Below are positions 1-3,506 of a stretch of DNA of 64,000 nucleotides, in pieces. The position numbers and the translations under genes are program-made. Position 1 is the first letter of the stretch. Each line of letters begins with the position of its first letter. Below the pieces are notes generated by a model. That model ran no database searches and had not been told where the DNA came from. It saw only the letters and a program-made list of their open reading frames with translations. Location: assembly GCF_024502345.1 (NCBI RefSeq), contig NZ_JALDNN010000001.1. One strand, given 5' to 3'. This stretch comes from Escherichia coli (GTDB lineage Bacteria; Pseudomonadota; Gammaproteobacteria; Enterobacterales; Enterobacteriaceae).

Positions 1-2
1 AA

Positions 3-1118
3 ACGTTTTTTGTCAAATTTATTGAACAACTGAAAGGTATTTCGGTTGAGGATGATGTTGAATTCAATTTTTTTGAATTGGGTGGTTCCGGATATCTCGA
101 AAATCCAACTACGGATTTGATGGCTTTGTTTATGGGAGCCCAGAAAATGGTGCCGCCATGGTTGCTCAAAGCATTGCTATGTTGCCTAGATGATTCCCTC
201 GATGTTGATGAAATTGATTTCACTTCTCTGGAGCTAATGAGAGAGGCCCGAACAGAAGATGGGAAATATATTGATATTCTTATCAGACATGATGAATTCA
301 TTATAGGTATTGAGCATAAAGTTCTGGCTGATACATATAATCCTTTTCCCAGCTATGTAAGTCTCATTGATAGTTACGGCGGCAACAATCAAAAACTATT
401 TCGCTGTATATTAAAGCCTGACGGTAACAGCGCTAAAGGCGTAGACGGTTGGCAACTGATCAATTATTCACTGCTGCTGGAAACCGCCATTCGACGTCTG
501 GGGTTAGAGATGATGAATCAAGAGTTCAGCAAGTGGACTTTTTTTTATCAGGAGTTTTTAAGTCATCTTAAAAAATTGAGTGAGGTTAGTATGGATAAGG
601 TATCTGATAAAAATGTGGAGTTTGTCACTGAAAATTTCACAGCTTTGATAAAATCGGTTCAATTGCTGGAAATGTACCAAAATGCTATCACCGAGGAAGC
701 TAAATCGGTTGTCTCAGAGGTATTGCCTGATATTCATATTGCAACAGGTATTAATAACTGGAAGGGTTACTATAAAGCAATTCATCTGATGCCGGGATGC
801 TGGGGGCAAGGTAAAACAGGAATTACGTTAGTTTATCGCCCTTCAGAGGATGGTCGAGATGAAGCTGAGTTCTATGTATATGGATGGATACATTCAGATG
901 ATTACCCTGAAGTTAATGCACTAAAAGAAGAAATAAGAGTTGCTTTAAGTGCTGGAGATTTCATTCCAACAGCTAGCCCTGAGGACTATGAAGTATCAAT
1001 TACTGGGAAGGGGAAAGTGCTTGAACTGAGTTTTTGGGGGAATACGAGAAGCAAAAAAGATGCACTGGTTCTTCTTAAGGATATGACTAAGTGGATGGAC
1101 TCAAAAATAAGAACATAA
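3..1118 (+). CDS. Hypothetical protein, 5'-truncated at window edge; PD-(D/E)XK-type nuclease motif (YIDILIRHDEFIIGIEHK)
   Basis: Frame is open from nt 3 with no in-frame stop before the track ORF at 78 (TTG), so the true start is upstream; stop TAA at 1116-1118; AT-rich codon usage. Confidence 0.7.
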   Translation, partial: TFFVKFIEQLKGISVEDDVEFNFFELGGSGYLENPTTDLMALFMGAQKMVPPWLLKALLCCLDDSLDVDEIDFTSLELMREARTEDGKYIDILIRHDEFIIGIEHKVLADTYNPFPSYVSLIDSYGGNNQKLFRCILKPDGNSAKGVDGWQLINYSLLLETAIRRLGLEMMNQEFSKWTFFYQEFLSHLKKLSEVSMDKVSDKNVEFVTENFTALIKSVQLLEMYQNAITEEAKSVVSEVLPDIHIATGINNWKGYYKAIHLMPGCWGQGKTGITLVYRPSEDGRDEAEFYVYGWIHSDDYPEVNALKEEIRVALSAGDFIPTASPEDYEVSITGKGKVLELSFWGNTRSKKDALVLLKDMTKWMDSKIRT

Positions 1119-1222
1119 AGTAATATGACTGAGTGATGACGATCTTTTTTAAATTGTGGATTATTAGGCTGGTAATTGAAGCGCCGAATAGACAGATATT
1201 AGAATAAAAGGAGAATATTCAA

Positions 1223-2404
1223 ATGATTTATCAGTGTGATACTTGCAGTAGAACGACTTTTGAGGTTAATTGTCCCTGGTGTAGTGGAGTTTCGCCTGTA
1301 AAAACGTCTGCATGGGGTTCAGCATCATCGACCTCACAAGCAATAGATATACAACGTATGACACCATTGAATCCATCGTTTTATCCAGAGTTTCAGTATC
1401 GTTCAAAGGGTGTTCTAAAAGATCTATTTGGGAAAAAGAAAGAGCAAACTCAGCTTAATCAATTGCTTGAAAATGTTCTCGAAAAATACTCCAGTTTAAA
1501 AGATCCATATTTTACTAACTTCATTTACACTTCCAGATTCTCACATAATAATAAATCGGAAGCAGATTACTCAACAGATAATGGTACATACTCCGAATTA
1601 CAACTTTTCCGTGAGGTGTTGGTCAGAAAAGGGTTCAATGAGCTTGAAGAGTTACCTGAGCTATTAGATAAATTACTCCTTACCACGTCATTTAACGCTC
1701 TTTATTATGGTTTCGCTAAGGAAGTTAAACGGCATATTAAATCTACACTTACTGAATCCTTGAAGTCATGGATTGAGGAAGCGGGTACCACTTTTAGGGC
1801 AGATCTTTCATTGTTTCTATTCTATATATGGAGCAATAAAATAGAGTTCTCATCAGTAGAGTTCAATGAAAAAGCGGAGGCTACGCCTGGTGTTCCTTTA
1901 GTTTCATTTGATGAAGTTAAAAAATACTTAGCTGTGTGCGAACATATTTATTTTGATATTCTGGTTGATAGATTAGCTACACGGCTCGAACATTTTAACC
2001 CTAACAAATTCGTCACCATGTATTTAGTTGATGCAATGGACGGTTTCCAGTTTGAAGATTTCCTTGTGGAAGTATTCCAGACTATGGGCTATGACGTCAA
2101 AGAAACCAAGAGAACGCAAGATCAGGGGGCAGATCTCTTCGTCACTCGATTTGGTAAGGATATGGTTATTCAGGCGAAAAATTATTCTGGTTCTGTAGGT
2201 AACTCGGCGGTGCAGCAGGTGATCTCTGCTAAAACATTCTATGGTTGTGATGAGGCGATGGTTGTGACTAATTCCTACTTCACTCGCTCTGCGAAAGAGT
2301 TAGCTGAATCAGCCTTGGTACGTCTGATCGACAGGGATGAACTGCAAAAGTATCTGGATGATTACAATCAGAAGATAATTGAAGATTTCCAGTCAAACTC
2401 GTAA
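1223..2404 (+). CDS. Zinc-ribbon protein with C-terminal Mrr-like (type IV restriction endonuclease-like) catalytic domain
   Basis: 393-aa ORF; SD aaggag upstream of ATG; N-terminal CDTC...CPWC; C-terminal GADLFVTRFGKDMVIQAKNYSG...LIDRDEL resembles the Mrr_cat core (D ... QxK). Confidence 0.75.
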   Translation: MIYQCDTCSRTTFEVNCPWCSGVSPVKTSAWGSASSTSQAIDIQRMTPLNPSFYPEFQYRSKGVLKDLFGKKKEQTQLNQLLENVLEKYSSLKDPYFTNFIYTSRFSHNNKSEADYSTDNGTYSELQLFREVLVRKGFNELEELPELLDKLLLTTSFNALYYGFAKEVKRHIKSTLTESLKSWIEEAGTTFRADLSLFLFYIWSNKIEFSSVEFNEKAEATPGVPLVSFDEVKKYLAVCEHIYFDILVDRLATRLEHFNPNKFVTMYLVDAMDGFQFEDFLVEVFQTMGYDVKETKRTQDQGADLFVTRFGKDMVIQAKNYSGSVGNSAVQQVISAKTFYGCDEAMVVTNSYFTRSAKELAESALVRLIDRDELQKYLDDYNQKIIEDFQSNS

Positions 2405-2589
2405 CTTTGCAGTCATATAGATATAGCAAAGGACAGGTAGGCCTCCGTGAGAGGGGGACTTACCTGTGCAGATTCTGTGCTCAAAGTTATCCAAGTCTAT
2501 CTATTTACTGCCAATTACAGTAAAATGAGTAAACAATTACAGCAAAGTTTCGCAATGCACTGCTATGTAACTCATTGATCCTGCGTAGA

Positions 2590-2645
2590 ATTTAAAATCC
2601 CTCGGCGTTCGCGCTGTGCGGGTTCAAGTCCCGCTCCGGGTACCA
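2590..2645 (+). repeat. attR-like partial tRNA-Leu (leuZ) copy: anticodon loop to 3' CCA only
   Basis: atttaaaatccctcggcgttcgcgctgtgcgggttcaagtcccgctccgggtacca matches the 3' half of E. coli leuZ; the preceding sequence does not match the 5' half. Confidence 0.8.
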
Positions 2646-2687
2646 TGGGAAAGATAAGAATAAAATCAAAGCAATAAGCAGTGTCGT

Positions 2688-2713
2688 GAAACCACCTTCG
2701 GGTGGTTTTTTTG
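2688..2713 (+). terminator. Rho-independent terminator downstream of the tRNA 3' end
   Basis: Stem accacc-ttcg-ggtggt followed by a T-run. Confidence 0.75.
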
Positions 2714-2840
2714 TGCCTGCAACTTGTCGTTACACCCTCCTTAATTTTTAATCACCGGCAAAGCCACTCAAAAAGTATCTCTGATACGGACCGGCATGTA
2801 AGATAGGTGCTGGCGAGTTGAGATCCACAAGGAAAAACGT

Positions 2841-3506
2841 ATGAAAACGGGACCGTTAAACGAAAGTGAGTTGGAATGGCTGGACGATATTCTGACCAAA
2901 TACAACACTGACCACGCCATCCTTGATGTGGCGGAGCTGGACGGTTTATTGACGGCGGTGTTGAGTTCTCCGCAAGAGATTGAACCGGAACAGTGGCTGG
3001 TTGCCGTGTGGGGTGGGGCTGACTATGTGCCGCGCTGGGCGTCAGAGAAAGAGATGACGCGCTTTATGAACCTGGCTTTTCAACATATGGCCGATACCGC
3101 AGAGCGTCTGAACGAATTCCCGGAGCAGTTTGAGCCGTTATTCGGCTTGCGAGAAGTTGATGGCAGCGAGCTGACGATTGTTGAGGAGTGGTGCTTTGGC
3201 TATATGCGGGGCGTGGCACTTTCTGACTGGTCAACATTGCCCGATTCGTTAAAACCAGCGCTGGAGGCGATTGCGCTGCACGGTACTGAGGAAAACTTCG
3301 AGCGGGTAGAAAAGATGTCGCCAGAAGCGTTTGAAGAGAGCGTAGATGCCATTCGACTGGCGGCGCTTGATCTACATGCGTACTGGATGGCGCATCCGCA
3401 GGAAAAAGCTGTTCAGCAACCGATCAAAGCAGAAGAGAAACCGGGGCGTAACGATCCTTGCCCGTGCGGTAGTGGTAAGAAATTTAAGCAGTGCTGCCTG
3501 CATTAA
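2841..3506 (+). CDS. yecA: SEC-C motif protein YecA (UPF0149)
   Basis: 221 aa; C-terminal [17 protein letters not shown] metal-binding motif; matches K-12 YecA. Confidence 0.93.

Follow-up and report, generated by a model that had tools for sequence, protein, structure and literature searches.

Several families of restriction nuclease work as single proteins without a cognate methyltransferase. Mrr of Escherichia coli and other Type IV enzymes of this kind carry a C-terminal Mrr_cat nuclease domain with a D...QxK motif, which in Mrr is preceded by the winged helix Mrr_N. The E...D...QxK pattern is that used by Mrr and by MspJI-type enzymes. Two further groups sense modified phage DNA with other domains: the END nucleases join a Type IIS-like nuclease to an inactive EndoIII domain (PMC12191111), and CMoRE joins a GIY-YIG nuclease to a sensing domain (PMC12923530). 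Here we analyse gene 2 of a 64,000-nucleotide stretch of E. coli DNA (contig NZ_JALDNN010000001.1 of assembly GCF_024502345.1; the whole stretch is called the window below). Its product has an apparently intact Mrr_cat domain at the C terminus and, in the place of any described reader of modified DNA, a putative zinc knuckle and an all-helical domain that we found in a single protein family. We tentatively favour the view that it is a self-contained defence nuclease with a recognition domain of its own.

Gene 2 shares with E. coli Mrr the C-terminal Mrr_cat domain with its D...QxK motif, the single polypeptide and the lack of a cognate methyltransferase, and its position beside a Type I restriction–modification (R-M) system recalls the mcrBC-hsdRMS-mrr region of K-12. 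It differs from Mrr in its N terminus, which carries a putative zinc knuckle in place of Mrr_N and was modelled without a beta wing. The Type IIM modification-dependent restriction endonucleases (REases) MspJI and AspBHI use a beta-rich, SRA-like reader, whereas the N-terminal module of gene 2 is all-alpha and has no detectable similarity to it; the structure matches to MspJI and AspBHI were limited (at best 125-157 aligned positions, with a TM-score normalised to the query of 0.21-0.24). The best PADLOC profile matches, ZorD and PDC-S02, were all through Mrr_cat, at about residues 260-385. ZorD of the Zorya system was matched in the last ~130 of its 1071 profile positions (E = 2e-21), but gene 2 has no Snf2 helicase (no helicase domain in Pfam). 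PDC-S02, which groups single-gene Mrr_cat candidates, was matched by protein residues 261-391 at profile positions ~185-329 (E = 3e-16), and the N-termini of the profile were left unmatched. The domain also resembles the Lamassu LmuA profile and the nuclease domains of LlaBIII, Avs4 and Upx. Shedu (SduA) combines a variable sensor with a PD-(D/E)XK nuclease, but that nuclease is DUF4263 rather than Mrr_cat, and the N-terminal module of gene 2 is invariant and not swapped. NA-iREase1 proteins have lost their catalytic residues and are linked to NACHT/STAND nucleoside triphosphatases (NTPases), whereas gene 2 keeps these residues and has neither an NTPase domain nor a conserved NTPase neighbour. 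Neither EndoIII nor GIY-YIG, the domains of END and CMoRE, was detected in it with Pfam. Thus gene 2 is not a member of the Mrr proper, MspJI, ZorD, PDC-S02 or NA-iREase1 groups. Mrr_cat is very commonly fused to N-terminal regions of various kinds, and a specialist would not be surprised by a well-known nuclease whose control module is undescribed and specific to its family.

The C-terminal nuclease domain

Gene 2 is a complete coding sequence at 1223-2404 on the + strand, read as an open reading frame (ORF) from the window sequence; it starts with ATG and encodes 393 residues. Its RefSeq entry, WP_042202023.1, is labelled 'restriction endonuclease'. Pfam matched residues 270-377 to Mrr_cat (PF04471) with E = 9.8e-30 and 103.5 bits, and gave weaker, overlapping C-terminal matches to NA-iREase1 (E = 5.6e-15, 55.7 bits) and Mrr_cat_2. 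Mrr_cat was matched in 26 of 29 family sequences, the remaining three being C-terminally truncated fragments, and NCBIfam, PHROGs and PADLOC likewise recognised the C-terminal domain only. The strings that had pointed to this domain in the preliminary description of the window, made from the sequence alone, lie at residues 277-292 (FEDFLVEVFQTMGYDV), 302-307 (GADLFV), 315-323 (VIQAKNYSG) and 368-374 (LIDRDEL). E278, D304 and the QxK motif are invariant in 26 close homologues and are kept in full-length, diverse members down to 34% identity. By its place in the PD-(D/E)XK pattern, E278 is probably catalytic.

Structure prediction with AlphaFold2 (AF2), the check proposed in the preliminary description, agreed with this assignment. 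A first run, with 26 relatives at ≥60% identity, modelled residues 1-125 poorly (predicted local distance difference test score, pLDDT, <50). A second run, to which divergent members (34-45% identity) from the representative search were added, gave a compact whole with a mean pLDDT of 84.9 and a predicted template modelling score (pTM) of 0.74. In this model residues 266-370 form an alpha/beta domain with the restriction-endonuclease-like fold, which supports the nuclease assignment, and are followed by a C-terminal helix in which R371, L374 and N382 are conserved. On the strength of its sequence, its motifs and its predicted fold, gene 2 is thus assigned to the Mrr_cat/PD-(D/E)XK superfamily. 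The Mrr_cat pattern read earlier in its C terminus was borne out, with E278, D304 and Q317-x-K319 all intact, and the product is probably an active nuclease.

One metagenomic relative, P0124 (391 residues), departs from this pattern. ENSADL and IQARHC replace DQGADL and IQAKNY, so that the catalytic Lys is an Arg. From its sequence, P0124 may be an inactivated or altered nuclease.

The N-terminal module

The MIYQC start is common to the gene 2 product and its homologues, and it leads into a putative zinc knuckle. The protein has six Cys residues, four of them within the first 20 residues (C5, C8, C17 and C20) and the others at 239 and 342. The four N-terminal Cys are invariant in 26/26 close homologues and mostly retained in relatives at 34-45% identity; distant family members show variants of the knuckle, such as CxxC...C-HH. 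Residues 1-21 were modelled as a small beta-hairpin knuckle (pLDDT ~90), and the four Cys would bind zinc. A zinc ribbon had been noted here before, and its four conserved Cys stand, but the spacing between the two pairs is eight residues rather than eleven and the motif spans residues 5-20 rather than 5-21. The linker that follows (residues 22-45) differs among homologues in both length and sequence.

Beyond the linker the protein is predicted to be largely helical. Residues 46-103, which begin with a short strand at 46-48, contain an invariant GKKKE motif, are mildly basic (isoelectric point, pI, 9.0) and are the sole basic part of the N-terminal module. Invariant positions in the homologue alignment are P48, P51, Y54, F57, Y59, G63, K71 and P95-Y96-F97-x-N99, and the long helix at 64-103 was modelled at a pLDDT of 88-95. 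A low-confidence loop (104-122, pLDDT <50 at 113-115) separates it from the helical core, which comprises helices at 125-135, 147-171, 176-204 and 229-257 and a variable loop at 205-235. The whole protein is acidic (pI 5.05).

No described domain could be assigned to this region. Residues ~21-265 had no match in Pfam, NCBIfam, PHROGs, PADLOC or the PDB by sequence and profile searches, and residues 1-265 had no Pfam match in gene 2 or in any of 29 relatives. The preliminary description had likewise found no assignable motif in the central region, and these five databases bear it out. A structure search of the whole model, in which the module was not searched by itself, reported no fold match for the helical module. 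A HMMER profile of residues 1-262 matched 51 proteins among 1.84 billion representatives. With the exception of a single weak match, to a long protein of repetitive sequence, all of these were members or fragments of one ~390-residue family. Each full-length member of the family has a C-terminal Mrr_cat domain, and no match joins the N-terminal module to another effector. As the matches are limited to one family, the N-terminal module is an orphan domain and not a shuffled sensor.

Two apparent resemblances within the module found no support. Residues 128-152 (nt ~1604-1678; LFREVLVRKGFNELEELPELLDKLL, LFREVLVRKGF...LLDKLL) bear a loose likeness to the two-helix, DNA-binding motif of SAP/HeH domains, but we do not claim a relationship, as Pfam SAP, HeH and Rho_N had no match there. 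The similarity of residues 175-378 to 'restriction endonucleases' of Bacillus plasmids, found by tblastn, was rejected as alignment drift upstream of the Mrr domain in a pairwise comparison.

The ratio of nonsynonymous to synonymous substitution rates (dN/dS), calculated by the Nei-Gojobori method from a codon alignment for 80 homologue pairs with dS of 0.15-1.2, was 0.039 over the whole gene, which indicates strong purifying selection. By segment it was 0.05 for the knuckle (residues 1-21), 0.17 for the linker (22-45), the highest of all, 0.018 for residues 46-103, 0.028 for residues 123-204, 0.10 for the loop at 205-235, 0.020 for residues 236-262, 0.014 for Mrr_cat (263-370) and 0.016 for the C-terminal helix. 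Thus the helical orphan module is as constrained as the nuclease, with no sign of diversifying selection. The middle region had been suggested to be a sensor or specificity domain. It is indeed a real, constrained and family-specific domain, predicted to be all-helical, and such a role is plausible; it lacks, however, the variability of a swappable specificity module.

Table 1. Features of gene 2 and its surroundings, with positions in the window
Feature	Residues	Position	Strand	Basis
Promoter-like hexamer pairs and ribosome-binding site		1176-1216	+	Within the 104-bp gap 3' of gene 1
Putative zinc knuckle/ribbon, C5-x2-C8-x8-C17-x2-C20 (CDTC-x8-CPWC)	5-20	1235-1282	+	Cys conservation and model
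Variable linker, predicted to be disordered	22-45	1286-1357	+	pLDDT <50 at 23-41
Pro/aromatic-rich strand PLNPSFYPEFQY, then 40-residue helix (64-103) with GKKKEQ	46-103	1358-1531	+	Conservation, model
Predicted all-helical core of the orphan domain	123-262	1589-2008	+	AF2, pLDDT 85-96
Mrr_cat (PD-(D/E)XK) nuclease domain	270-377	2030-2353	+	PF04471
Acidic residue of helix 1 (FE motif), codon GAA	E278	2054-2056	+	Kept in all full-length members
Putative metal-binding Asp (GADLF), codon GAT	D304	2132-2134	+	Sequence, conservation
QxK form of (D/E)xK, codons CAG GCG AAA	Q317-A318-K319	2171-2179	+	Sequence, conservation
C-terminal helix, DELQKYLDDYNQKIIEDF	371-393	2333-2401	+	Helix 371-392 in AF2 model
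attR, 63-bp exact repeat of the 3' part of tRNA-Leu		2590-2652	+	Exact match to L010 13867-13929

Distribution and gene neighbourhoods

Among 5.8 billion protein clusters, the search recovered a close-knit family of ~390-residue proteins (60-98% identity) in Enterobacterales, Pseudomonas and Burkholderiales, all labelled 'restriction endonuclease'. In 26 close homologues the four Cys, the nuclease motifs and many residues of the middle region are invariant. One genome from each of 100,044 species was scanned with the alignment of close homologues as the query, which gave 63 loci, 57 of them about full length. Most are in Gamma- and Betaproteobacteria, with sporadic occurrences in metagenome-assembled genomes of Planctomycetota, Bipolaricaulota, Chloroflexota, Victivallaceae and others. 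Two divergent members, P0148 and P0128, lie on metagenomic contigs too short to give a gene context. Within E. coli the gene was present in 243 of 5426 complete genomes (4.5%), always on the chromosome, and 219 copies were nearly full length. The family as a whole is nearly absent from plasmids. About 10% of the E. coli carriers (24/243) have a partial copy only, and IS1, IS5 or ISKpn26 is inserted beside or within the gene in several E. coli genomes.

Proteins encoded within three genes of the 57 full-length species loci were clustered. The commonest neighbour family occurred in at most 8 of these loci, and the neighbours included neither a conserved partner nor a recurrent methyltransferase. 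The median intergenic gaps on the two sides were 105 and 127 bp. Recognised defence genes lay within three genes in at least 17 of the 57 loci, and in two more among 10 further neighbours that were sampled, others of which were housekeeping, transposase or unknown genes; many of the loci share ancestry, and many are uninformative. Gabija adjoins the gene in 7 loci, PDC-S25, PDC-M01B, integrases and helicases occur nearby in a few loci each, and an HNH gene of Type IV-like character and an AbiO/Nhi-like gene neighbour family members in others. The nearby Type I hsdM belongs to a separate operon and is present only on the enterobacterial island.

The settings themselves are diverse. In Klebsiella the gene stands alone beside folD, with or without an adjoining satellite or prophage, and in Kosakonia a lambdoid prophage carries it, with kilR/recET on one side and the repressor on the other. 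In Pseudomonas SCB32 it is 3' of a gene whose HNH product has a match to a Type IV REase profile, and in Paraburkholderia it is found among HIT and HNH genes. Gene 2 is thus horizontally mobile, and often, though not always, found among defence systems.

Two other neighbours recur in Pseudomonas. A protein of 134-150 residues is encoded directly upstream on the same strand in five loci (L035, L038, L039, L040 and L069), and had no PADLOC match; it could be a lineage-specific accessory or mere shared synteny. A protein of ~349 residues starting MSGARQHFIPRFLQKGF is encoded downstream in four loci (L024, L028, L030 and L052) and had no PADLOC match at the threshold used. We presume that it resembles DUF4238-type defence candidates.

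Mode of action and competing explanations

The reading that we prefer is that gene 2 encodes a self-contained, methyltransferase-less endonuclease that acts against phages or mobile DNA, by Type IV-like recognition, and we put its probability at roughly 0.4. The Mrr_cat domain would be the Mg2+-dependent cutting module, acting through E278, D304 and Q317-x-K319. The N-terminal two-thirds of the protein, with its putative zinc knuckle, flexible linker and helical domain, would be a built-in targeting or licensing module that chooses which DNA is cut, or when, and the nuclease would thus be kept harmless to the host. In the version that we prefer, the module would directly recognise a chemically invariant feature of foreign DNA, such as a modified base or an unusual DNA structure, and the protein would act as the modification-dependent Type IV enzymes do, but through a recognition domain of a new kind. 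We infer both the role in defence and the nature of the target from several lines of evidence. As no conserved methyltransferase or partner was found, discrimination of self from non-self must be intrinsic: an intact nuclease in this situation would have to be kept inactive until infection, or else to recognise a feature that host DNA lacks. Type IV-like recognition is preferred because the N-terminal module is extremely conserved and strictly linked one to one with the nuclease, because the nuclease fold is close to those of MspJI and AspBHI, and because the neighbours include a Type I R-M system, a DUF262/GmrSD-like protein and the HNH Type IV-like protein. The low variability of the N-terminal module is also more readily explained by an invariant ligand than by a phage protein that evolves fast. 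A role in defence is further favoured by the mobile and defence-related settings of the gene, by its low GC content and by its scattered occurrence, both among phyla and within E. coli.

A number of observations weigh against this reading. None of the SRA, PUA, Mrr_N, YTH and EVE readers of modified bases is detectable in the gene 2 protein, and the helical domain is acidic (pI 5.3), which is unexpected for a large DNA-binding surface. Mrr_cat is also the effector of infection-activated systems (ZorD, Avs4 and Lamassu). It was for these three reasons, the acidic module, the lack of a known modified-base reader and the frequency of Mrr_cat in infection-activated systems, that we kept our confidence low. 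The step taken in the preliminary description from an Mrr-type nuclease to modified DNA is unsupported by the domain alone, as the same domain occurs in ZorD, LmuA, LlaBIII, Avs4 and Upx while Mrr_N and SRA-like domains are absent here. A defence gene lies within three genes in only 17 of the 57 loci, and many loci adjoin housekeeping or unknown genes. The gene is rare in viral collections: IMG/VR gave four loci, and isolated phage genomes gave none. A full-length model for gene 2 is lacking in PADLOC, no description of or experiment on any family member was found in the searchable literature, and no tested protein containing MIYQCDTC was found in the DefensePredictor supplementary files examined.

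The same evidence bears on four other explanations, of which the one to be taken most seriously is an infection-triggered sensor nuclease, similar to abortive infection systems, in which the N-terminal module auto-inhibits Mrr_cat. A phage protein, a nucleic-acid intermediate or a perturbation of the host would release or oligomerise the nuclease, and DNA would then be degraded indiscriminately. The logic would be that known from Shedu, Avs4 or Lamassu, but the sensor would be new. We regard this as possible but doubtful. A solitary, intact nuclease without a methyltransferase needs some restraint. In the model, which is compact with a pTM of 0.74, the helical domain packs on the nuclease; the putative sensor region is acidic; and Avs4, ZorD, Lamassu LmuA and Upx all use a fold of the Mrr_cat type as their effector. 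Diversification is, however, usual in sensors of phage proteins, whereas few parts of this protein are more conserved than the module (dN/dS 0.02-0.03), which is never swapped for another sensor or joined to another effector, and which comes with no NTPase, repeat array or other signalling domain in Pfam. It is unlikely that the protein has no immune role at all and is a structure-specific nuclease that processes DNA for a mobile element or the host, for example in junction resolution, mismatch or flap cutting, or the addiction or exclusion of competing elements. The gene is not tied to any one type of element: pipolins, prophages, islets next to satellites and plain chromosomal islets all carry it. 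Within species its occurrence is sporadic (4.5% of E. coli), its sequence is similar to Mrr_cat and not to the Hjc or NucS families, and those recurrent neighbours that can be identified are defence systems. What speaks for such a role is that many loci have no recognised defence neighbours, that the gene lies beside recET in the Kosakonia prophage, and that in E. coli it is carried by a self-replicating pipolin.

The two remaining explanations are considerably less probable. That gene 2 works only with gene 1 (78-1118), as a two-gene, dual-nuclease system, is very unlikely in spite of their common strand, the 104-bp gap between them in the window and the conservation of the pair in E. coli, Citrobacter, Klebsiella michiganensis, Buttiauxella and Intestinirhabdus. 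Homologues of gene 1 are adjacent in only 6 of the 57 species loci, all of them ≥98% identical copies of one enterobacterial island; the copies of gene 2 in Klebsiella, Pseudomonas, Paraburkholderia and Kosakonia do without it, and PADLOC treats gene 1 as a single-gene candidate, PDC-S26. An operon, as the label 'Gene 2' might imply, therefore finds no support outside this type of island. Least credible of all is that the Mrr-like domain has lost catalysis, like that of the NACHT-associated iREases, and that the protein is a DNA-binding or regulatory factor. Mrr_cat scores far above the secondary NA-iREase1 match that would suggest this (103.5 against 55.7 bits), and E278, D304, Q317 and K319 are present and conserved across the family, the QAR in place of QAK of the divergent P0124 being the other point in its favour.

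Upstream signals and the pipolin setting in E. coli

A ribosome-binding site (AAAGGAGAA, 1208-1216) can be read directly 6 nt 5' of the ATG of gene 2. The two sigma-70-like matches further upstream, at 9/12 positions each, are weak, as matches of this quality are no commoner here than in shuffled sequence. Across 54 homologous loci the median gap 5' of the gene is 105 bp, which is consistent with the gene having its own promoter. No RNA family was matched in window positions 1-3000 with Rfam. The GC content of gene 2 and its island is 35-43%, compared to ~50% in the adjoining core genes.

The window matches the chromosome of E. coli strain CT02 at 100% identity, and there gene 2 is the last gene of a 27.4-kb island at tRNA-Leu, between pgsA and yecA. 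The island spans positions 1-2652 of the window, which are its right arm, and sequence upstream (L001 1-22404, L010 13836-22001). It encodes two integrases and a B-family DNA polymerase (piPolB), which identify it as a pipolin, and its insertion site is that described for E. coli pipolins (PMC11551731). The attL of the island is the intact tRNA-Leu. Its attR begins 186 bp past the stop codon of gene 2, and no complete tRNA was found there by ARAGORN.

On the same strand, the genes leading to gene 2 are, in order, hsdM, hsdS, a YecA-like gene (PDC-S12), hsdR, an M48 peptidase gene, a DUF262/HEC-06 gene and gene 1, a PD-(D/E)XK gene (PDC-S26). Gene 1 (L001 19991-21118, 375 residues) matched PDC-S26 with E = 2e-50. 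It is truncated by the edge of the window and its true start is further upstream; the TTG start at 78 in the ORF list is false. The YecA-family gene (L001 13263-13946), between hsdS and hsdR, matched PDC-S12 with E = 2e-98 and encodes a protein with 57% identity to the chromosomal YecA, whose own gene lies just outside attR (window 2841-3506). Thus a paralogue of a flanking host gene sits inside the Type I R-M operon. In CT02, sdiA is interrupted by IS5 (L010 7706-9627, outside the window).

The enterotoxigenic E. coli (ETEC) strain H10407 carries the same gene at 96.5% nucleotide identity, and between this gene and the end of the island lies a complete MZA system, mzaA-E (L078 10617-19182). 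This shows that cargo is exchanged at this end of the element.

Implications

The interest of gene 2 lies in its compact orphan domain and in the ease with which it could be tested. It is possible, if doubtful, that the zinc-knuckle and helical module is an undescribed sensing domain, and that with Mrr_cat it makes up a new single-gene anti-phage system with a recognition principle of its own. That principle might be hypermodification or DNA structure, read by a domain that is acidic and all-helical, or a conserved cue of infection that unlocks the nuclease. If gene 2 had no effect on phages, it would be one of very many uncharacterised Mrr_cat fusions. If it protects against phages, gene 2 would be one more compact, single-gene, methyltransferase-less defence nuclease, carried by E. 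coli pipolins (including that of ETEC H10407), Klebsiella, Pseudomonas and Burkholderiales. It would then also offer a new, small recognition domain with a tractable ligand, and if the ligand were a modified base the enzyme could become a reagent, as MspJI and AbaSI did. Finally, it would complete the inventory of the defence module of pipolins, where it is now an unclassified 'restriction endonuclease'.

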